Below, in pieces: positions 3,346 through 41,347 of a stretch of DNA of 64,000 bases. This stretch comes from Candidatus Parcubacteria bacterium (GTDB taxonomy: Bacteria; Patescibacteriota; Minisyncoccia; UBA6257; 2-01-FULL-56-20): assembly GCA_027450205.1 (NCBI GenBank), contig DAIDJL010000002.1, positions 7,870 to 71,869 of the forward strand, written 5' to 3'. Under the pieces are notes generated by a model. That model saw only the letters and a list, made by a program, of their open reading frames with translations, was not told the origin of the DNA and did no database searches. Numbering within the stretch: the first letter of the stretch is position 1; every line of letters begins with the position of its first letter. A program made the position numbers and the translations under genes.

Positions 3346-5130
3346 TTACGCTTCCCCTCCGGGAAGCTTGCTCAACTCAGCAAGCGCGGCTTCGAGCTCG
3401 GACTGATTGCCACGCGCTTCGGCGTTGCGTACCGCGAGCGAGAGGATCTTGCGCCGCTCTTTATAATATTCCCTCGCAAGGCCGTCTTTTATTACCGCGA
3501 TGTCCTTGTCGGAAAGTTCGCTCGCGGCGGTCGGATCGCGAAGCACAATAAGGTTCACGATAGCGTCGAGTGTGGCGTCGTCACTCCTGCGCTCGCCGCG
3601 CTTTAATAGAGCGAAGATCTCTTTTTGCGCGGGAGTAAAGAATGCGACACAGTCCTCTATGAATGCGAAGTCATTGCGCGCGAGCGCGATGGCGAAGAGG
3701 TCCTCTGCTATAAGCTCCTGGCGCGAAACCTGGCGTTTGGGAGCCTGCTCGTCCTGTCCGGCCATATTGTTCGTGGTGGAGGGAGTTGGCGCTGCGTATT
3801 GTGTGGCCGCCGACTTCTCTCCCTCGTCCTTGAGCGTCGCTTCATCAACCCCCGTGCGCTTGGCAAGTTCCTTCATCCAGAAATCCCGTTCCACCGGACT
3901 CGCGATATTCCGCAGCTTTAATAACACCGTACGCAATTTACCGAGACCCTCGCGCGTCGTGAATGCGGCGGGGTCAGACGACGTTGCGCCCGGCGCGAGC
4001 GGCGGCAGATATTTTTCAAAATAGAAAACCGGCGCCGTCACCGCCGCGGCCACTGTCGTGCGTACATTCTCCGGATCCGCTTTCGCCGCATCCGCCGCAT
4101 CCTTGAAACCACGATACGTCGCCACCTTCACCGAAAAATCATTCGCTTCAGCGAGGTCGATCGCGCGCTCGGCGGCGTCGGAGCCGGCAATGTCCGAGTC
4201 AAAACATAAAATGACCTCGTCCGCCAGGCGCCGCACGGAACGCAGGTGGTCGGCGGTGAGCGCGGTACCCGATGACGCGATCACATTGCGCACGCCGCTC
4301 TGGTAGCTCATCAAAAAATCCATCTGGCCCTCCACGAGCACGGCGGTCTTCACCTCGCGGATCGCGTCCCTGCTCTTCCAAAACCCGTAGAGCAGGCGCG
4401 ACTTCTGGAAGATCGGCGTCTCCGGACTGTTCACGTATTTTGCGGTCACGTACGCAGCCTTCGGATCGTTCGACGTATCGAACTGCGGAAGAATGCGGCC
4501 AGTGAAGCCGACCACCTTGCCAAGATGGTTGTGGATCGGGAACATGACGCGGCCGCGGAACCGGTCGAGCATCATCCCCCGCTCCGTCTTTATGGACAGG
4601 CCGGCCTGCAGGAGGTCCTGTGGCGCGGCGCCACCGTTCAAAAGATGCATTGAAAGATCCTCCGGTTCGTTCGCCGCCCAGCCAAGCTCGAACTCCTCTA
4701 TGGTGGCCGGCGTAAGCCCGCGCTCCGCCAGATATTGCTTGACGATCGGCGCCGCCGAGAGCGCCTTCACGTAAAAATTTTTTGCCGAAGCGTTCAGATC
4801 GTAAAGCAATCCGGTATAGCGGTATTCGGCGGGATTCTCGTGCCGCAGTTCGACTCCCGCTTTTTCCGCGAGCATGCGCAAAGCCTCGCCGAATTCCATA
4901 TTCTCGTACTTCATCACAAAACCGAAAATGTCGCCGTCCGCGCCGCAGCCGAAACAGTGGAACCGCTGGCGCTCGGGCGAAATGCTGAACGACGGCGATT
5001 TCTCATGGTGGAACGGACAGAGCGCTTTGAAATTCTTGCCCGCGGGCGTGAGCGTCAGATACCCGCGGAGAAAGTCCACGATATCAAGCTTGCTCTTTAT
5101 AAGTTCGGCGGTGGATGATGGCATGGTCAC
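3346..5130 (-). CDS. dnaG: DNA primase
   Basis: Zinc finger CPFHHEKSPSF...CFGCGADGD and a TOPRIM region (VLVEGQMDFL...CFDSD). Confidence 0.9.
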   Translation of the reverse strand: MTMPSSTAELIKSKLDIVDFLRGYLTLTPAGKNFKALCPFHHEKSPSFSISPERQRFHCFGCGADGDIFGFVMKYENMEFGEALRMLAEKAGVELRHENPAEYRYTGLLYDLNASAKNFYVKALSAAPIVKQYLAERGLTPATIEEFELGWAANEPEDLSMHLLNGGAAPQDLLQAGLSIKTERGMMLDRFRGRVMFPIHNHLGKVVGFTGRILPQFDTSNDPKAAYVTAKYVNSPETPIFQKSRLLYGFWKSRDAIREVKTAVLVEGQMDFLMSYQSGVRNVIASSGTALTADHLRSVRRLADEVILCFDSDIAGSDAAERAIDLAEANDFSVKVATYRGFKDAADAAKADPENVRTTVAAAVTAPVFYFEKYLPPLAPGATSSDPAAFTTREGLGKLRTVLLKLRNIASPVERDFWMKELAKRTGVDEATLKDEGEKSAATQYAAPTPSTTNNMAGQDEQAPKRQVSRQELIAEDLFAIALARNDFAFIEDCVAFFTPAQKEIFALLKRGERRSDDATLDAIVNLIVLRDPTAASELSDKDIAVIKDGLAREYYKERRKILSLAVRNAEARGNQSELEAALAELSKLPGGEA

Positions 5131-30632: not shown

Positions 30633-30992
30633 TTACTTTCTCGTTCGCCTGCCAAAAACGAATTTTTGCGAAGCGCTCAACGGCTTATCTTTCCGATGGA
30701 TGCAGCCTGCCCAGCAGCAGGGACGGCGCATGCCCTCTTTCAGCTCCGAACATACCCGCTCAACATGTTCCCGCCGCGTCTCCGCTTGCTTGACCGAGGT
30801 GGTCCAGCAGATCCACTCGTTGCGCGCGAGCGGCGTAATATCCTCCCATTTTGCCAGAGCTTTGGGGTCGGACGTAAGCGCTTTTTTTAGGTCTGCCGGC
30901 AAGGCGTGGGCCACGCCGCCGGAAATTTTTTTTGCCATAACGATCGGAGTGACAATAAAGCGTTTTATATCTCCATTCTCCACGCGGCCCAC
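30633..30992 (-). CDS. YdeI/OmpD-associated family protein (DUF1801-like)
   Basis: WICWTTSVKQAETRREHVER motif. Overlaps the ilvE 3' end by about 28 nt. Confidence 0.5.
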   Translation of the reverse strand: MGRVENGDIKRFIVTPIVMAKKISGGVAHALPADLKKALTSDPKALAKWEDITPLARNEWICWTTSVKQAETRREHVERVCSELKEGMRRPCCWAGCIHRKDKPLSASQKFVFGRRTRK

Positions 30993-31936
30993 TTCCCCCC
31001 ATCGGTTCCCCGTTGCGTCGCCTCATATTTTTCGGCGATCATCTTTGTGATCGGGCCGGGCGCCGTTGTGCCGCCCGCACCGGACGCCATCGCCGCTGCA
31101 CTGCCGACGGCGCGCTTGTCCACCGAAACGATCGGCGTGATGCGCGCGGAACTGCCGGAGATGAATGCCTCGTCTGCAATATACAACTCCGTACGATCCA
31201 CCATACGCTCCTCCACCGGGATGCCCGCATCACGCGCGATCGTAATGACGCTCGCGCGGGTGATGCCTTCAAGAAGATCCGTGCTCACGCCCGGGGTGAT
31301 CAATACGCCGTTGCGCACAATGAAAATATTCGCGACCGTCGCCTCGGTGACGCGCCCCTGCGCATCAAGCACAATCGCGTCGTCATAACCATTCAAGATC
31401 GCCTCGTTCTTTATAAGCGAGTTATTGGCGTATCCGCCGTTCACCTTTGCGCGCGACGGGATCACATTGTCGATCCCGTGCGTCCAACTGGACACGCACA
31501 CATTCACGCCCGCACGCGGGAGGATCTGCCCCATCGGATAGACGTATGCGGAAAGCGACTGCGGAAGGTCGTGGATCTTCGTCCCCGCAATGAGCGCGTC
31601 CACGAACACCGTCACACGCACGAGCACATCTTCGCCCTCTATATTATTCCGTGCGACGAGCTCGCGCATCGTCGCTTCGAACTTCTCGTACGGCCACGCG
31701 GCGGCGAATCGATTAAAATCCATGATTGCCGACGAGTTCACCAACCGCTTGTAATGATCTTTTAATCTAAATGCATATCGCTTCTTCTCGGCTTCGTTCC
31801 AGTTGACGCTAAAGACAGTATAGACACTTAGGCCATACAGCACGGGCGAACTCGCGATGCTTACATTTGCATCCTTGAACGGCACGAACGAATCGCGGAA
31901 AAAGGCTTGACCAGTAATGTAATTAAAAGAGGGCAT
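30965..31936 (-). CDS. ilvE: Branched-chain amino acid aminotransferase (class IV)
   Basis: Fold-type IV PLP enzyme motifs. Confidence 0.85.
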   Translation of the reverse strand: MPSFNYITGQAFFRDSFVPFKDANVSIASSPVLYGLSVYTVFSVNWNEAEKKRYAFRLKDHYKRLVNSSAIMDFNRFAAAWPYEKFEATMRELVARNNIEGEDVLVRVTVFVDALIAGTKIHDLPQSLSAYVYPMGQILPRAGVNVCVSSWTHGIDNVIPSRAKVNGGYANNSLIKNEAILNGYDDAIVLDAQGRVTEATVANIFIVRNGVLITPGVSTDLLEGITRASVITIARDAGIPVEERMVDRTELYIADEAFISGSSARITPIVSVDKRAVGSAAAMASGAGGTTAPGPITKMIAEKYEATQRGTDGGKWAAWRMEI

Positions 31937-34849: not shown

Positions 34850-34939
34850 GGAGGCGTGCCAGAGTGGCCGAATGGAGCTTCCTGCTAAGAAGTTGACCGG
34901 GAAACCGGTCCGAAGGTTCGAATCCTTCCGCCTCCGCCA
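34850..34939 (+). tRNA. tRNA-Ser(GCT), CCA encoded.
   Basis: ggaggcgtgccagagtggccgaatgg...ctGCTaa...long variable arm...ggttcgaatccttccgcctccgcca. Confidence 0.85.
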
Positions 34940-34941
34940 GC

Positions 34942-34971
34942 AAAATCGGATACCAAATGGTATCCGATTTT
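34942..34971 (+). terminator. Perfect hairpin (aaaatcggatacc-aaat-ggtatccgatttt) after tRNA-Ser.
   Basis: 13-bp stem flanked by T. Confidence 0.55.
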
Positions 34972-35091
34972 GGTACTGGGCGGGAGGATAAGAACCCTTT
35001 AGGGTTCGGGAATCGGCAGCGAGGAGAAAATGAGTCAGTTCCGCGGATTCATTTTCTGACGAGCGAACCGATTCGGCAGATTCTTATCCGC

Positions 35092-35110
35092 CCATCCTTC
35101 CGCCTCCGCC
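35092..35110. repeat. Direct copy of the tRNA-Ser(GCT) 3' end (atccttccgcctccgcc) 172 bp downstream of the tRNA. It marks the start of the proximal ~300-bp repeat.
   Basis: The 17-mer is identical to tRNA positions 34922-34938. Confidence 0.75.
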
Positions 35111-35156
35111 CGTTAGTGCATCGGTTCGAGAGACCTTGAACAAAAAGACCGCCGAG

Positions 35157-35675
35157 TTACGACGGTCTCCGATAATGCAGTAGTACGGTTCCCTTATCGT
35201 TCAATTTCTTGACGGCGGTAAGATGAAAATTCACCGTCGCCTCATTTTTACATTTAAAGATATCCAATCCCTCGCCAAACACAACCGGCTCGATTGTCAG
35301 GTACAAATCATCGATGAGATCATGCTCGAGGAAGTAACTGTATACCTGCGTCCCTCCCAGCAACGCGATAGCGCGGTAGGATTCAAGAATCACTCCGATA
35401 GACGATGGTCCGTCAGCGTTGTAGTAAAGCAGATTGCTGCCCCGCCGTTCAGTATCGTGTACGGTGCGCGTAAAGACGATACAGTTCCGTTTTGATAACG
35501 GCCCCGCTGCCGTTTTGTAAGTGTTATTGCCAATCACGACCGCATCGCTCTTGTCCAAGAGCGAACGGAGAAACGTCTTATCCTCTGGACTCGTCCAGTC
35601 GGTGAAGTGCCCGGAATGCCGGGCGATTTTACCGTCGATCGTCACGGCGACGATGGCGCTGATATTCGGTTTCAT
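35157..35675 (-). CDS. Dihydrofolate reductase family / RibD C-terminal-domain reductase
   Basis: AIVAVTIDGKIARHSGHFTDWTSPEDKTF...AVVIGNNTY pattern of the DHFR-like reductase fold. Its start overlaps the upstream stop (ATGA). Confidence 0.75.
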   Translation of the reverse strand: MKPNISAIVAVTIDGKIARHSGHFTDWTSPEDKTFLRSLLDKSDAVVIGNNTYKTAAGPLSKRNCIVFTRTVHDTERRGSNLLYYNADGPSSIGVILESYRAIALLGGTQVYSYFLEHDLIDDLYLTIEPVVFGEGLDIFKCKNEATVNFHLTAVKKLNDKGTVLLHYRRPS

Positions 35676-36391
35676 TTGAATGCCCTCCAGAGCGGTGCGT
35701 AGAGATCGTTTTTTGGAGCGACCACCGACATCCGATGCGTGTCTTTATTGGTGAAGGTTATAAACTTCGCGCCGCGCAGGATGAGAAGCGGCGTTTGTTC
35801 ATCTCCTTCGCCCATGAGCAGGACTGCCATCGTTGAAAGCCCGTCGACGATATTCTTCGTCGTATGCTTGAGCAAACGCCCGAAGATATCCGGCTCCCCG
35901 CGGTAATCATAGAGCGGCTCCATGCCGTAGAAACCGATGGAGATGCCGAGTGTGCCATGCCGCAACGGGATAATATGACTATCCGTCACCACGACCGCGA
36001 GCTTTTTCAGTTTATATTTCCTTTTCAAATAACTGCGGATTTCCTTTGCAAGCGCCGACGGGCGCCGCGGCCACAAAATATAGTACCCATTGGCATTACT
36101 CTCGTCAATTCCGGCGTTCGCGATGAGCGTGTGGTCTTTGATCGTGAGATAGAGATTCTTCCATGTCTTCAAGTGACTATGGGCGTATCGGTCGGCCTCC
36201 CGCTTGATAAGTCGTTCTTTTAATGCACCAGGTCGTATTTTCACGCATCGCCCCTGATGGATCGCGAGCACTTTCGAAGTGATAAAGATAACGTCACCCT
36301 CACGCAATTGCGGCAGCGATTTATCGAGAACGGAATAAATGTCGTCCTTCGGCGGCAGGATCGCACGCGTTTTTACTGGGATGAACTTCAT
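35672..36391 (-). CDS. CofE-like protein (F420-0:gamma-glutamyl ligase family)
   Basis: GDVIFITSKVLAIHQGR, LIANAGIDESNA and VVTDSH match CofE family signatures. Start taken at MKFIPVK. Confidence 0.75.
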   Translation of the reverse strand: MKFIPVKTRAILPPKDDIYSVLDKSLPQLREGDVIFITSKVLAIHQGRCVKIRPGALKERLIKREADRYAHSHLKTWKNLYLTIKDHTLIANAGIDESNANGYYILWPRRPSALAKEIRSYLKRKYKLKKLAVVVTDSHIIPLRHGTLGISIGFYGMEPLYDYRGEPDIFGRLLKHTTKNIVDGLSTMAVLLMGEGDEQTPLLILRGAKFITFTNKDTHRMSVVAPKNDLYAPLWRAFK

Positions 36392-36446
36392 CCCGTAAGG
36401 ATACAAAAAAGGCCGGAGATAATCCACTCTCCGGCCTTTGCCGATG

Positions 36447-37463
36447 TCACTGCATCGCCTTAAGGACCTTCAGATACATGTCCTCGACAATTTTTTGCTG
36501 CACCTTCCCGGTCTTCACGTAATGATCGAGTCCGGGCGCCGCGTTCACTTCGAGAATCCAGTAGATTGATGGCTTTCCCGTGATGTCGCCGTCCACCATG
36601 AGATCAACGCCGCAAATGCGCAGCCCCATATCCCTCGTAAGACAGACAGCAATCTTCTTAAACCCCGGGTGGATCGCGTCGGTAACGTCCACGGCGTCGC
36701 CGCCGGAGGACAGGTTCGCGTTGTCGAGAAGGTAAACCTTCTGACCTCGCGCGAGGACAGAACGCATGCTCAACCTTTGCCGCTTGAGATTGTATGCAAT
36801 CCGTTTATCCTCGGCCCTGATGATGGTATCGCGGCCGCTTACAGCGAATCCCTTCTGTTTTTCCGTGAGCAGCTGGCGGATCGTCGACCGACCGTCGCCG
36901 ATCACGTTCAGCGGAACCCGTTCATACGCCGAGATTACCTTCCTGTCGAGTACGACAATCCGATAATCTCTGCCATGAATGGGCGACTGCACGAGCGCCA
37001 CCCTGTCGCGGGCAAACACGAAGCGCATTGCTTGATAAAACTCTCGCTTGGTGTACGCCTTTGCCATGCCGACGCCTTGGCTGCCGCTGTTGGGCTTCAC
37101 GACAACCGGAAAGCCGATCTTCGCCGCATACCGATATGCAGCATCAATATTCCTCCGCGATCCTATAGCACGGCAATGCTCTCGCGAAAAAAATGTTTTG
37201 CCCGGCACCGTGGGATAGCCCATCCGCTTCATAAAGAACGCGGCATAGTCCTTGTCCTTCGCGATGTCGGAAGCGCCGACAGGATTGAGATCGAGCGTCG
37301 ATCCCCTAAAGTATCGCTTGCGACCATTTTTAAAAGCAATCTGGCCCACGACGCGCCATTCGGGCTCGATCAGGATGGTCGCCCCGAGCTTGGGAGCGAG
37401 TTTGCGAAATATCTGTCCCAGAAGCGGGCCGACCATTTTTTTCTTTTTCATACGGGTCGCCAT
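36447..37463 (-). CDS. ATP-grasp ligase, RimK/alpha-L-glutamate-ligase-like
   Basis: ATP-grasp motifs (FPVVVKP, YWILEVNAAPG). Confidence 0.75.
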   Translation of the reverse strand: MATRMKKKKMVGPLLGQIFRKLAPKLGATILIEPEWRVVGQIAFKNGRKRYFRGSTLDLNPVGASDIAKDKDYAAFFMKRMGYPTVPGKTFFSREHCRAIGSRRNIDAAYRYAAKIGFPVVVKPNSGSQGVGMAKAYTKREFYQAMRFVFARDRVALVQSPIHGRDYRIVVLDRKVISAYERVPLNVIGDGRSTIRQLLTEKQKGFAVSGRDTIIRAEDKRIAYNLKRQRLSMRSVLARGQKVYLLDNANLSSGGDAVDVTDAIHPGFKKIAVCLTRDMGLRICGVDLMVDGDITGKPSIYWILEVNAAPGLDHYVKTGKVQQKIVEDMYLKVLKAMQ

Positions 37464-37575
37464 TCCTTTCTATTCTATAACGAATGTTGTTTTACTGCTG
37501 GCCAAAATATAACACAGATTGATCAAATATGCAAATGATTTTGCAGCCCCTCCTCTATTGAGGTTCTAAAGTAGT

Positions 37576-37900
37576 CCATCCGCCTCCGCATTAGTTATTC
37601 ATCGATAAAATCAATACTTCTGGAGTATAGGGAAAGAGGACATCAAAAACTTATTCGTTCGAATCCAAATTTTTCTATTAAATATGGAAAAAAGCCGCCA
37701 AGTTATGACGGTCTCTGATAATGCAGCAGTGCGGTTCCCTTCTTGTTCGATTCTTCGATGGCGACAAACAAGGCGGCGGTCCGGTATGGTTCGAGAATCG
37801 CTGCGATGGGCGTTGGTCCGTCGGCGTTGTAATACGCCACGTTGTCGCTCCGAGGCTCCGCGTCTGACACGGAGCGGGCCGCGCGCGCTTCACATTAAGG
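37576..37900 (-). pseudogene. Distal ~300-bp direct repeat: a degenerate tRNA-Ser 3'-end copy (ccatccgcctccgc), then a spacer, then a truncated and internally deleted paralog of the DHFR-like gene 3' end.
   Basis: Minus-strand translation of 37704-37866 gives ...SDNVAYYNADGPTPIAAILEPYRTAA//LFVAIEESNKKGTALLHYQRPS*. The intact gene has GSNLLYYNADGPSSIGVILESYRAIA...TAVKKLNDKGTVLLHYRRPS*. Nucleotide identity is about 85% over ~75 nt at the 3' end. Confidence 0.65.
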
Positions 37901-37945: not shown

Positions 37946-40393
37946 ATGATGCAATCCAACCAACCCGGAGCGCAGGGCGGCGATTTGAGCAAGCTCCCTC
38001 TGGCAGAAATCGAGCGGATACTGGCATCTTCCCCGAGCGGACTTTCGCAAGCGGAAGCGGAGCGGCGCCTCTCGGAATATGGCCCGAATGAGATCGAGGA
38101 GAAAAAAACAAATCTTTTTATAAAATTCTTTACCTATTTTTGGGGACCGATCCCGTGGATGATCGAAATAGCGGCGATCCTTTCCGCGACCGTACGTCAC
38201 TGGGCCGACTTTTCCATCATTGCGGTCCTTCTTGTTTCAAACGCAACTGTCGGATTTTGGGAAGAATACCAGGCAGGAAATGCGATCGCGGCGCTGAAAG
38301 CGAAACTTGCCGCAATAGCACGCGTTGAGAGAGATGGGCGTTGGGCTACGCTCGCAACGAGATCGATCGTCCCAGGCGATGTCATTCGCATCCGGCTTGG
38401 GGACATCGTTCCCGCAGATGGGCGCCTGCTTGGGAGCGGCGATTCGGTTGAAATCGATCAATCGGCGCTTACCGGCGAATCACTGCCCGTGGAACGAAAC
38501 GCCGGTGACGCAGTCTTCTCGGGGTCCATTATCCGCAGGGGCGAGGCTGACGCTCTTGTTTACGCTACGGGAAGCCGCACATTCTTCGGCAAAACGGCGG
38601 ATCTCGTGCAGAATGCGCGCACGGTTAGCCATTTCCAGCGGGCGGTGCTTAAAATAGGAAATTATCTCATCATCCTTGCGAGCGTGCTTGTTGCGCTCAT
38701 TGTCGTCGTGGCCGTCGCTCGCGGCAACACGCTTACCGACACCTTGGAGTTTGCGCTCATCTTGCTTATCGCGGCAATTCCCGTCGCCATGCCGACAGTG
38801 CTGTCGGTGACGATGGCGATTGGCGCACGCCTGCTTGCGAAGAAAGATGCGATCGTCACGCGGCTTTCTTCGGTCGAGGAATTGGCCGGTATGGATATGC
38901 TCTGCTCGGATAAGACGGGAACCCTTACTGAAAACAAATTAAAGCTGGGCAGTCCATTTACGGTGGGCAGTGCTACTCCGGAAGAACTCATCCTTTACGG
39001 GGCGCTTGCCTCGCGCGCAGAAGACCGGGATCCGATAGATCTCGCGGTGATCAATGGCGTAAGCGACCAGGCGGCACTTGCCGCATATCATATATTGAAA
39101 TTCCTGCCATTCGACGCAGTGCGGAAACGCACCGAGGCCGAAGTCCGCACGCCGGACGGAAAGATATTTTCCGTATCCATGGGTGCTCCGCAAACCATTC
39201 TTGGTATCTCAGATAATAAACAAGAAGTGTTCGACATGGCGGAACGAGCCGTGGAAGAATTTGCGGCGCGGGGATTTCGCTCGCTTGGAGTTGCTCGCGC
39301 GGAAAAAGGAAATGGATGGCTATTCGTGGGGATACTTCCCCTCTTTGATCCCCCTCGGCCGGAGGCGCAGGCAACCGTGAGAGACGCCCAAGCGATGGGC
39401 GTAAAGATCAAGATGATCACCGGAGACCATATCGCCATCGCGCGAGAGACCGCGCACGAACTTGGCTTGGGCGCCGATATCCTTGATGCAAGCGGTTTGG
39501 ACAATAACGGAAAGGAGCCGTCCGCCGCACAAGCAGATGCCATTGAAAAAGCGGATGGATTTGCCCAGGTATTTCCCGAACATAAATTTGAGATCATACG
39601 GGCGCTCCAGGAACGCGGCCACATTGTCGGGATGACGGGCGACGGCGTGAATGACGCGCCGGCCCTCAAGAAGGCCGATTGCGGCATCGCCGTTTTCGGC
39701 GCCACCGATGCGGCGCGCGCAGCCGCTGCGATGGTTCTCCTCACGCCGGGGTTGTCGGTGATCATCGAGGCCATCAAGGAGGGTCGGAGGATCTTCCAGC
39801 GGATGACGAGCTATTCCATTTATCGGATCACGGAGACCATCCGGGTGCTCCTTTTCATGACACTTGCGATCCTAGTGTTCAATTTCTATCCGGTAACCGC
39901 AATTATGATCGTGCTGCTTGCCATTTTGAACGACGGAGCGATACTTTCCATTGCTTACGACAATGCTTCCTTTGATCAGGCGCCGGAGGCTTGGCAGATG
40001 AAGAAAATATTGGGCGTTTCGACGACGCTCGGCGTCGCCGGCGTCGTGGCAACATTCACGCTTTTTTATCTTGCTGAGCAAATATTCCACATGGGCGCAG
40101 GACAAGTTCAAGCGCTTATGTACCTTAAATTGTCCGTTGCGGGCCACCTGACCATTTTTCTTACGCGTACGCGCAAGCGCTTCTGGTCAGACCGACCATC
40201 AAAAATACTGGTCATTGCGGTCTTCGGCACTCAAGCGATCGCAACCCTTATCGCCGTATATGGGATCTTTATGCCTCCGCTCGGATGGGGATGGGCAATC
40301 GTGGTCTGGGTATATGCACTCGCATGGTTTCTCATCAACGATCAGGTAAAACTGCTCGCGTATCGGATATTCGATCCCGTAGCGCGACCATAA
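37946..40393 (+). CDS. P-type ATPase, plasma-membrane H+-ATPase-like (P3A subtype)
   Basis: DKTGTLT, TGDHIAIA, GDGVNDAPALKKAD, 10 TM segments, and an N-terminus like P3A pumps. Confidence 0.85.
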   Translation: MMQSNQPGAQGGDLSKLPLAEIERILASSPSGLSQAEAERRLSEYGPNEIEEKKTNLFIKFFTYFWGPIPWMIEIAAILSATVRHWADFSIIAVLLVSNATVGFWEEYQAGNAIAALKAKLAAIARVERDGRWATLATRSIVPGDVIRIRLGDIVPADGRLLGSGDSVEIDQSALTGESLPVERNAGDAVFSGSIIRRGEADALVYATGSRTFFGKTADLVQNARTVSHFQRAVLKIGNYLIILASVLVALIVVVAVARGNTLTDTLEFALILLIAAIPVAMPTVLSVTMAIGARLLAKKDAIVTRLSSVEELAGMDMLCSDKTGTLTENKLKLGSPFTVGSATPEELILYGALASRAEDRDPIDLAVINGVSDQAALAAYHILKFLPFDAVRKRTEAEVRTPDGKIFSVSMGAPQTILGISDNKQEVFDMAERAVEEFAARGFRSLGVARAEKGNGWLFVGILPLFDPPRPEAQATVRDAQAMGVKIKMITGDHIAIARETAHELGLGADILDASGLDNNGKEPSAAQADAIEKADGFAQVFPEHKFEIIRALQERGHIVGMTGDGVNDAPALKKADCGIAVFGATDAARAAAAMVLLTPGLSVIIEAIKEGRRIFQRMTSYSIYRITETIRVLLFMTLAILVFNFYPVTAIMIVLLAILNDGAILSIAYDNASFDQAPEAWQMKKILGVSTTLGVAGVVATFTLFYLAEQIFHMGAGQVQALMYLKLSVAGHLTIFLTRTRKRFWSDRPSKILVIAVFGTQAIATLIAVYGIFMPPLGWGWAIVVWVYALAWFLINDQVKLLAYRIFDPVARP

Positions 40394-40441: not shown

Positions 40442-41074
40442 TCACTGCCCGGCTGTCGCCCCGATCTTCAATAATTCATTCAGCCGATCCCGGTCGAATC
40501 CCATGATGATCTCCGTGTCGCCGTCGTCAAAGAGCACCTCGGTCTGCGGCACGCCCGTCTGTCCGCTCTTCCGTACCATTGCCTCGGCAGCCTTGCGATC
40601 CTCGTCCACCATCACAAGATCGAACGCGATCTTGTGCTTCTCAAGATAATCCTTTTCCATCCTGCAATACGGACACGTGGCTGTTGAATAAAGCGTGATC
40701 TTCTCAAGTTTTGGATCGCCGACGCCCGCCGCCTCATTCACAAGCGTTCGCAGCACGCGATCCATCTCTTCTATCGTCGGCGCCAACTCGTCGAGATGCG
40801 CGCCGCCGGCGAGGATCTGAGGATTCGAAATGGCGATCATTGTCTTCCCTTCTTTCTCCTGTATAAGAGCACTGTCCGGCATAAGCCCTGCCAGCATATG
40901 GTCGGCTGCGGTGATCGCCTCAGTCCATGACTGCTTGAAGAAATAAATAATAGTGCCTTTTGAAACATCTTTTCTGGCAACCACCTCGATCCCCTCTTTT
41001 TTTAATCCGGCGGCGAACCGCTCCGCGACCTCAGCTACCGGCTTTTCCGTCTTTCGAACGTATGCAATGTTCAT
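40442..41074 (-). CDS. DUF302-like domain fused to a glutaredoxin (CPYC) domain
   Basis: C-terminal TCPYCRMEKDYLEKHKIAF...GVPQ glutaredoxin fold. Confidence 0.6.
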   Translation of the reverse strand: MNIAYVRKTEKPVAEVAERFAAGLKKEGIEVVARKDVSKGTIIYFFKQSWTEAITAADHMLAGLMPDSALIQEKEGKTMIAISNPQILAGGAHLDELAPTIEEMDRVLRTLVNEAAGVGDPKLEKITLYSTATCPYCRMEKDYLEKHKIAFDLVMVDEDRKAAEAMVRKSGQTGVPQTEVLFDDGDTEIIMGFDRDRLNELLKIGATAGQ

Positions 41075-41098
41075 AGTTTTATAAAATTTAGTTAATGA

Positions 41099-41347
41099 TC
41101 ATTTAACAAGTCTTACGACATCCCTCACGAACGCCCGTTTTCCGGGTCTGATGCGATAGTATTTCTCCCGGCCTTCCTTCCATTCCTCAATGATGCCATT
41201 GTCTCGCAATATGCCGAGATGATGCGACAGCAACGGCTTCTTCATCTCCAGGCATTCTCGGAGATCGCATCCGCGCGATGAGCTGCACCCGAGCAGTTTG
41301 CAAAGGATCGCGATCCGCCCTTCGTTGAATATCCATAGGTTTTTCAT
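41099..41347 (-). CDS. ArsR/SmtB-family metalloregulator
   Basis: LSHHLGILRDNGII recognition helix; Cys-rich CSSSRGCDLREC. Confidence 0.75.
   Translation of the reverse strand: MKNLWIFNEGRIAILCKLLGCSSSRGCDLRECLEMKKPLLSHHLGILRDNGIIEEWKEGREKYYRIRPGKRAFVRDVVRLVK

Follow-up and report, generated by a model that had tools for sequence, protein, structure and literature searches.

A FolC2-like ligase and a Thermotoga-type dihydrofolate reductase encoded beside an ATP-grasp ligase in a Parcubacteria genome: a probable folate unit with a candidate accessory enzyme

The 64,000-nt stretch of Candidatus Parcubacteria DNA analysed here (contig DAIDJL010000002.1; hereafter the window) carries three neighbouring genes on its minus strand, whose products are predicted to be an ATP-grasp ligase, a gamma-glutamyl ligase of the FolC2 type and a dihydrofolate reductase (DHFR). 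These open reading frames (ORFs), first pointed out in a sequence-only reading of the same stretch, are present in the ORF list at the coordinates given there. The elements needed for what follows are:

37463..36447, minus strand: ATP-grasp ligase gene, 338 aa (ORF list and Pfam)
36439..36408, minus strand: terminator-like hairpin with a 12-bp stem including 7 G-C pairs and a TTTTTTG run after it, within the 55 nt that separate the ATP-grasp gene from the FolC2-like gene
36391..35672, minus strand: gene for a FolC2-type gamma-glutamyl ligase (CofE/COG1478 fold), 239 aa from its ATG
35675..35157, minus strand: gene for a Thermotoga maritima-type dihydrofolate reductase, 172 aa (ORF and Pfam)

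The stop codon of the FolC2-like gene and the start codon of the reductase gene share an ATGA overlap, which had been noted before and is seen in the sequence, and a GGAGGG Shine-Dalgarno motif lies 8 nt 5' of the reductase start; the two genes are accordingly taken to be translationally coupled. The earlier description of all three genes as a tightly coupled operon thus holds for the FolC2-like/reductase pair, but not for the ATP-grasp gene, whose stop codon is 55 nt away from the FolC2-like ATG, with the hairpin in between. Likewise, the coordinates proposed for the cofE-like gene (36391..35672) are retained, but not its length of 251 aa: this form needs an upstream GTG at 36427, a start for which support is lacking, as profiles and homologues align from the ATG instead. 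For the ATP-grasp gene, an alternative ATG at 37451 agrees with the 334-aa length of its homologues and could be where translation really begins. For each of the three proteins, the closest relatives are encoded in metagenome-assembled genomes (MAGs) of Patescibacteria, or candidate phyla radiation (CPR) bacteria, including Minisyncoccia, Paceibacterota, Parcubacteria, Doudnabacteria, Magasanikbacteria and others.

The assignment of the FolC2-like protein to the CofE fold, already proposed, is borne out by a Pfam profile search (PF01996, 4.3e-39, 134.7 bits for a gathering score of 25). Its top NCBIfam model is TIGR04132, "putative folate metabolism gamma-glutamate ligase" (1e-69, 234.5 bits), on which it scores about 100 bits higher than on any CofE model, and it falls below every CofE equivalog cutoff (132.3 against 180.65 bits for TIGR01916, 129.1 against 274 for NF009809 and 95 against 304 for NF009810). 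The protein also aligns with the CofE of Archaeoglobus fulgidus (2g9i/2phn, 4e-19), with the GIDESN, TDS and MGEG motifs matched. As no member of the family alignment departs from GIDxSN, TDx and MGEG at these motifs, it is predicted to be an intact ligase of the CofE fold. A CofE homologue of Chlamydia, CT611 (FolC2, COG1478), stands in for the absent FolC and complements an E. coli folC mutant, and FolC2 clusters with folate genes, including that of 5-formyltetrahydrofolate cycloligase (5-FCL) (PMC1971073). Some JGI annotations name members of the present family "dihydrofolate synthase / folylpolyglutamate synthase", and the window protein is a predicted folylpolyglutamate (possibly also dihydrofolate) synthetase.

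To describe the genomic context of this family, 80 loci encoding relatives were fetched (L001-L080), and neighbours were counted over 76 of them. In about 27 of the 80 loci, the next gene downstream, in the same orientation, encodes a TmDHFR-type reductase, and the other recurrent neighbours include genes for Vut_1 (17 loci), dCTP deaminase (Dcd, 8 loci), ThyA (5 loci) and Tmk (4 loci). The FolC2-like neighbourhood is hence a folate/thymidylate context.

The 172-aa reductase matches both PF00186 (36.6 bits for a gathering score of 25) and PF01872, RibD_C (50.4 for 24.1), in line with the DHFR/RibD-C fold foreseen for it. Its top solved match is the DHFR of T. maritima (1CZ3/1D1G), with an E-value of 1.5e-20 for the single sequence and 9e-34 with an 18-member family profile; more than 50 DHFR chains rank next in the PDB profile search, in which pyrimidine reductases are marginal. 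Equivalents of E. coli W22, D27, G43, T46, L54, R57, G95-G96, Y100 and T113 are kept, of which D27, T46, G95-G96, Y100 and T113 do not vary among the 18 family members, 16 of which have R57 (this mapping used the sequence of E. coli DHFR and the TmDHFR sequence from the PDB search). Identity as a RibD pyrimidine reductase is rejected on model scores (TIGR00227, 37.4 against 150; TIGR01508, 34 against 186; TIGR00326, 18.7 against 156), no riboflavin genes are found in the neighbourhoods of the FolC2- or ATP-grasp-centred loci, and the RibD_C match reflects the shared fold. The protein is accordingly classed, from its sequence, as a putative Thermotoga-type DHFR. That folA genes of CPR bacteria can be functional is known from their complementation of an E. 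coli delta-folA strain (PMC11974145).

The FolC2-like ligase and the DHFR very probably form a folate unit. The pair would be the organism's equivalent of FolC and FolA, a module of an already known kind and not a new pathway. The core idea of the sequence-only reading, that one unit reduces and glutamylates a folate-type cofactor, is supported by these two identities, and its remark that neither FolC nor a canonical FolA is present here needs to be revised, since two of the genes of the locus encode a predicted replacement for FolC and a homologue of the characterised T. maritima DHFR.

Matches of the ATP-grasp protein to PF08443 (RimK; 51.1 against 21 bits) and PF07478 (Dala_Dala_lig_C; 38.9 against 24), as well as to CPSase_L_D2, confirm the ATP-grasp fold, but the label "RimK-like" given to it earlier does not survive closer comparison. 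The protein fails the RimK, MptN and LysX models, and membership in the RimK/CofF/MptN group is rejected on these scores (TIGR00768, 61 against 143.4; MptN NF040720, 41 against 350; RimK NF007764, 35.3 against 331; LysX, 42.2 against 275.6). Its nearest relatives are the G domain of cyanophycin synthetase and the GshAB module, which give the top NCBIfam models (2e-49 for the cyanophycin synthetase G-domain region and 4e-45 for the GshAB C-terminal module, all below cutoffs) and the top PDB matches (CphA2 8FXH, 2.5e-29; CphA1; GshAB 3LN7, 1e-26), RimK structures reaching only 2e-5. In public databases, relatives are annotated as "cyanophycin synthetase" or "D-Ala-D-Ala ligase-like". The first of these names, carried by NCBI relatives, is rejected for the window protein, which corresponds to the G domain alone (168.6 bits for a cutoff of 877; 338 aa compared with about 900) and of which only residues 55-327 align, to positions 199-469 of the 871-position cyanophycin synthetase model.

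The ATP-grasp protein belongs to a tight family of about 334 aa that is spread across CPR bacteria (more than 65% identity over at least 120 clusters). The family alignment (A3) shows no variation at K123, D166/R168, D287, E305 and N307, which are assigned to the conserved lysine, Asp-x-Arg, Mg-binding Asp and Glu-x-Asn positions of the ATP-grasp fold, and the protein is predicted to be catalytically intact. Two copies of the gene were seen on a single 4.7-kb contig (L127:1343-2335 and 3910-4545), with 66% and 65% identity to the window protein.

The link between this family and folate comes from its neighbours, which were collected from 80 metagenome loci, 30 of which form a well-flanked set with 3 kb or more of sequence to either side. 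Within this set, a CofE-family gene lies no more than 4 genes away from the ATP-grasp gene in 17 loci, and 21 loci carry at least one gene of the CofE-family, 5-formyl-THF-cycloligase-like, DHFR_1 or TmDHFR-type reductase families (THF, tetrahydrofolate); the rough chance expectation is about 3%, an estimate of our own that has no measured control and assumes some 4 such genes in a genome of about 1000. The partners occur on either side and on either strand of the ATP-grasp gene, in shuffled order, with gaps to the 5-FCL-like gene down to 3 nt and, in L124, an overlap between the start of the ATP-grasp gene and the CofE-family gene. They also include two divergent CofE subtypes, that of the window and a "type B" paralogue at 35-42% identity, the latter again scoring best on TIGR04132 (191 bits). 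Such a shuffled yet persistent linkage argues for selection rather than inherited synteny.

Similar partnerships are found outside the CPR. In the alphaproteobacterial MAG locus L068, a distant ATP-grasp gene stands beside an overlapping pair of FolC2-like and DHFR-like genes, whose FolC2-like product reaches 217 bits on TIGR04132; the small ATP-grasp family of L068 is 23% identical to the CPR family over the full length (hhalign 99.5%, E 1.8e-22). Members of the alphaproteobacterial group are also encoded beside an F420_ligase gene in L161 and L162, and between F420_ligase and 5-FTHF_cyc-lig genes in L163 and L164. The partnership of an ATP-grasp ligase with a CofE-type ligase, already proposed for the window, therefore extends to conserved gene neighbourhoods in two phyla. 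The F420_ligase ORF of L163 is short (129 aa) and possibly truncated, and a phage-type integrase gene (L163:7069-8223) lies about 1 kb from this cluster.

Two other kinds of neighbour were observed in the ATP-grasp loci. In L122, L128, L132, L138, L145, L155, L159 and L160, the gene stands beside purL, purQ or purE, often within 2-3 genes of a canonical DHFR_1 gene, which links the ATP-grasp protein to folate-dependent purine synthesis rather than to FolC2. In seven loci (L108, L109, L112, L120, L123, L139 and L085), a gene for a cytoplasmic-looking NlpC/P60 cysteine peptidase of about 167 aa is found near the pair formed by the "type B" CofE-like gene and the ATP-grasp gene, 2-3 genes from the latter. 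As some NlpC/P60 enzymes cleave gamma-glutamyl bonds, this peptidase could be a tail-trimming hydrolase.

We regard it as reasonably probable that the whole locus is a folate salvage-and-retention unit with an accessory ATP-grasp ligase acting on the folate glutamate tail. The FolC2-type ligase would stand in for the missing Mur-ligase-type FolC and add to folates the gamma-glutamate tail that keeps them in the cell and makes them good enzyme substrates, while the DHFR would reduce imported folate or dihydrofolate to tetrahydrofolate and also recycle to tetrahydrofolate the dihydrofolate left by thymidylate synthase. A functional link of the ATP-grasp protein to folate is likely, and any role that it has would be accessory, because most FolC2-like loci have no ATP-grasp gene nearby. 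The asymmetry of the association, with the ATP-grasp gene usually near a CofE-family gene and FolC2 usually alone, fits an accessory enzyme that depends on FolC2 or acts on its product, and not the reverse.

As to the reaction, ATP-grasp enzymes join a carboxylate to an amine via an acyl-phosphate and the only carboxylates of folate are in its glutamate tail, which makes the tail the expected substrate. The CphA G domain and the GshAB module, to which the protein is most closely related, lengthen peptides at their free C-terminal alpha-carboxylate. By analogy, the enzyme might take the folyl-(gamma-Glu)n product of FolC2 and attach an amino acid, in the simplest case L-glutamate, to its terminal alpha-carboxylate. 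The tail would thereby be capped or branched, much as that of F420 is by CofF once CofE has acted. This specific capping chemistry is put forward only tentatively. Precedents for ATP-grasp glutamate ligases acting on C1-carrier cofactors are MptN and MyfA/MyfB (PMC8141765). With the same reserve, the family can be proposed as an unrecognised group of folate-modifying enzymes that add an alpha-linked amino acid to the folate tail, or otherwise remodel it, FolC2 and the ATP-grasp ligase then being a folate counterpart of CofE and CofF that ranges from the CPR to some Alphaproteobacteria.

Several observations weigh against this assignment of the locus. With 234.5 bits, the FolC2-like protein stays below the trusted cutoff of TIGR04132 (350), as a divergent relative would. 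Seen from the FolC2 side, the association is weak, with the ATP-grasp gene adjoining in only 5 of 76 loci, and the FolC2 of Chlamydia presumably works without such an enzyme. Nine of the 30 well-flanked ATP-grasp loci have no folate gene within 4 genes, some loci show PurL/PurQ/PurE or NlpC/P60 neighbours instead, and folate genes are absent around P0263, a more distant member of the family. At 154 aa, the 5-FCL-like neighbour is a short protein that misses the NCBIfam MTHFS cutoff (49.9 against 84.9), and some 5-FCL paralogues have non-folate (thiamin-related) roles. In most lineages that have the gene order of the window, a hairpin fills the gap and separates the ATP-grasp gene from FolC2; in addition, neither a THF riboswitch nor another known RNA element was found in the window or in 10 related loci, which gave only tRNAs and noise. 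An AlphaFold2 model of the ATP-grasp protein, made from a 14-sequence alignment, was too poor to be used (mean pLDDT 62, pTM 0.50). Part of this evidence (the terminator-like hairpin, the presence in only 5 of 76 FolC2-centred loci and the 9 of 30 loci without a folate gene) would also fit an ATP-grasp ligase that is unrelated to folate and makes or extends another peptide-like molecule, be it a cell-wall precursor, a cyanophycin-like or poly-amino-acid product or a modified protein C-terminus, its adjacency being incidental and FolC2 and DHFR forming the sole unit. The public names of the family and the NlpC/P60 peptidase genes of the seven loci point the same way. We consider this unlikely, as 70% of the well-flanked loci have folate genes, shuffled and drawn from four folate-related families, the same partnership recurs for a 23%-identical relative in another phylum, and the N and M domains of cyanophycin synthetase are missing from a protein of 338 rather than about 900 aa.

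If the ATP-grasp protein does act on folate, it might catalyse another ligation: addition of the first glutamate to (dihydro)pteroate as a dihydrofolate synthase (DHFS)-like enzyme, with FolC2 elongating only, elongation of the gamma-tail, or a PurT-like activation of formate that formylates tetrahydrofolate. The folate context is the same for these activities, formate-using ATP-grasp enzymes are known (PurT and PurP), and a role in formyl-folate metabolism would suit the 5-FCL-like genes directly downstream and the PurL/PurQ/PurE neighbours. These possibilities appear quite unlikely, given that the sequence is nearest to extenders of peptide alpha-carboxylates, that no PurT or PurK model is among the 25 best NCBIfam matches, that folP and folK, for the supply of dihydropteroate, occur in none of the 160 neighbourhoods, and that FolC2 alone complements an E. 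coli folC mutant (PMC1971073). Very unlikely, in our view, is the synthesis of a small gamma-glutamyl peptide, such as a glutathione-like thiol, by the FolC2-like ligase and a glutathione-synthetase-like ATP-grasp enzyme, no cofactor being modified: the GshAB module is indeed matched (4e-45 in NCBIfam, 1e-26 in the PDB) and a glutaredoxin-domain protein is encoded 3 kb away (40442-41074), but CofE-type enzymes add glutamate to an acceptor carboxylate and do not activate the gamma-carboxylate of glutamate toward cysteine (PMC10861534). The DHFR, ThyA and 5-FCL context would also be left unexplained. Least credible of all is the tailoring of an F420/deazaflavin or methanopterin-type cofactor, the possibility raised by the sequence-only reading on the model of CofE, CofF/MptN and DmrA. 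The CofE fold and the formal analogy to CofE/CofF speak for it, and DHFR-fold dihydromethanopterin reductases do exist. It is nevertheless rejected on model scores and gene context: the FolC2 model is best and all CofE equivalog cutoffs are missed (234 bits compared with 132), the ATP-grasp protein reaches 41 bits on MptN for a cutoff of 350, the reductase groups with bona fide DHFRs, and the conserved neighbours (ThyA, Dcd, Tmk, DHFR and 5-FCL) are all of folate or thymidylate metabolism, cofC, cofD, cofGH, fbiC and methanopterin genes being absent both from the window ORFs that were scanned and from the neighbour clusters that recur in the 160 related loci.

Compared with known systems, the folate unit proposed here is closest to the arrangement of FolC2 (CT611, COG1478/TIGR04132) and folA in Chlamydia, where a CofE-fold ligase used in place of FolC lies beside DHFR and folate genes in a reduced genome. 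It differs in the score of the window protein, under the TIGR04132 cutoff, and in the Thermotoga type of the partner DHFR, and also in that the CPR host has no folKP or folB genes for de novo synthesis nearby; salvage, and not synthesis, is therefore its likely mode. Furthermore, the Chlamydia folate cluster is not known to include an ATP-grasp ligase, whereas that of the window has one. The reductase shares with TmDHFR (1CZ3/1D1G) full-length homology, a similar size and the catalytic and binding residues, but it is distant and also matches RibD_C, and its DHFR activity is a prediction. With CofE plus CofF and with MptN of methanogens, the locus has in common a CofE-fold gamma-glutamyl ligase and an ATP-grasp amino-acid ligase serving the tail of a C1 or redox cofactor (MptN: PMC8141765). 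Unlike these, it stands in a folate context, and its ATP-grasp protein comes from the CphA-G/GshAB-like branch (61 and 41 bits for cutoffs of 143 and 350). The CphA1/CphA2 G domain and the GshAB module, its closest sequence relatives, similarly extend a C-terminal alpha-carboxylate via an acyl-phosphate, but the window protein is a stand-alone enzyme without CphA N/M or GshA domains, scores far below their cutoffs and is found in a folate context.

The FolC2 and DHFR pair is already partly recognised by annotation pipelines, and the new point is that an uncharacterised ATP-grasp clade shows a conserved linkage, across phyla, to FolC2-like, 5-FCL-like and DHFR genes; folate enzymes are the only consistent genomic partners of this clade, in two phyla. 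Our literature searches found no publication that links ATP-grasp enzymes and folate in Patescibacteria, or that deals with COG1478 in the CPR. Folate handling in CPR/Patescibacteria has so far been discussed via folA, glyA and folD only (PMC11974145), a discussion that did not address how salvaged folate is retained by these auxotrophic episymbionts. The locus points to the use by CPR bacteria of a Chlamydia-type, CofE-fold FolC2 solution coupled to a Thermotoga-type DHFR. The ATP-grasp protein is a concrete and easily cloned candidate for a so far unrecognised step in the metabolism of the folate tail and, if it does act on the folate tail, would represent a new enzymatic step in one of the best-studied cofactor pathways. 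It could then also indicate the kind of enzyme behind the alpha-linked glutamates that were reported long ago in E. coli folates, and for which, to our knowledge, the gene was never identified.

The neighbourhoods additionally nominate candidate folate transporters in CPR organisms, for which none is known. A Vut_1 gene (PF02592, "vitamin uptake transporter") adjoins the FolC2-like gene in the 17 loci mentioned above, and in 11 loci (e.g., L040:9339-10013) the gene directly 5' of it on the same strand encodes an unannotated multi-pass membrane protein of about 224 aa, with no Pfam match even at an E-value of 0.1. Both are candidate folate/pterin importers of CPR bacteria.

Two further signals can be placed at the borders of the transcribed region:

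37506..37535, minus strand: sigma-70-like promoter candidate 5' of the ATP-grasp gene, TTTGCA-18-TATATT with a TG extension (consensus scan, a pattern match only)
35142..35169, minus strand: short hairpin AGACCG...CGGTCT with a T-run, over the reductase stop codon (read directly from the sequence)

The second is the probable end of the transcription unit; it was not flagged by the terminator scan, probably owing to its 11-nt loop, and is homologous to a flagged terminator (37711..37695) in a gene remnant further upstream, described below. Within the unit, the T-run of the 36439..36408 hairpin ends only about 17 nt before the FolC2-like ATG, for which reason this hairpin is probably a leaky terminator or an attenuator. 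Its position implies that the FolC2-like/reductase pair is expressed via read-through or from a promoter inside the ATP-grasp gene, and it would probably set different expression levels for the two parts. The same hairpin is present in the closest relatives (L081, L082, L084 and L088), non-homologous ones fill the same gap in L098, L019, L020 and L037, and none is found there in L005, L091 and L092. Several long ORFs run antisense to real genes, for example 36669-37538 on the plus strand (289 aa), opposite the ATP-grasp gene; they are probably frame artefacts of this 55% GC sequence and not genes.

The cassette formed by the three genes is flanked by repeats and by traces of an older reductase gene:

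34850..34939, plus strand: tRNA-Ser(GCT) (ARAGORN; Rfam, 50.9 bits), whose 3' end (34922-34938) is the source of the repeated motif
35094..35110, plus strand: 17-nt repeat of the tRNA-Ser 3' end without any mismatch, where the cassette ends on its downstream side
37574..37590, plus strand: degenerate copy of the tRNA-Ser 3' end (14/17, 3 mismatches), at the upstream boundary
37688..37878 (about), minus strand: remnant of a decayed second reductase gene, comprising its 3' part with an internal deletion of about 138 nt and its own terminator (37711..37695)

The presence of tRNA 3'-end copies at both boundaries agrees with the earlier description of a repeat-bracketed cassette next to tRNA-Ser; the motif has 5 matches within 3 mismatches, for 0.39 expected, and in L084 the corresponding tRNA-end motif is likewise found at both cassette boundaries. 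The three direct copies (two exact, one 14/17) are arranged like nested att sites, without an integrase. A perfect 15+15-nt palindrome (CAAAATCGGATACCA/TGGTATCCGATTTTG) follows right after the tRNA-Ser gene, at 34941-34972. The remnant, found as a direct repeat (D1, 76 nt at 82%), is orthologous, together with about 100 nt of spacer, to the 3' end of the intact L084 reductase gene and its downstream spacer (84% and 79% by blastn), and is closer to these than to the window's own intact reductase gene, a sign that the cassette underwent tandem duplication or recombination long ago. Repeats and pseudogene together show past recombination or duplication at this site. The proposal that the cassette was acquired horizontally does not fare as well, and recent transfer is rejected: GC and GC3 are not deviant, the GC3 of the three genes (62-68%) being inside the housekeeping range of the window (61-75%), no integrase is found among the cassette neighbours and window ORFs scanned, and the cassette is shared with the relatives L081 and L084 (85-88% nucleotide identity), where it lies downstream of the same PLD gene, without an adjacent tRNA.

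The remainder of the window encodes ordinary chromosomal functions, such as ParA/ParB, IF-2, RbfA, GyrB, Dus, MscL, a P-type ATPase and a branched-chain aminotransferase. The last of these, a class IV aminotransferase (30965-31936), was considered as PabC and rejected in favour of the branched-chain assignment. A search of the 64-kb window for ThyA, Dcd, Tmk, Vut_1 and the Mur-ligase-like neighbour found none of them. On the minus strand at 40442-41347, the gene for a 210-aa protein with a C-terminal glutaredoxin domain (40442-41074) follows that of an 82-aa ArsR-family regulator, and the two adjoin the gene of the P-type cation ATPase (37946-40393, plus strand), which diverges from the cassette.

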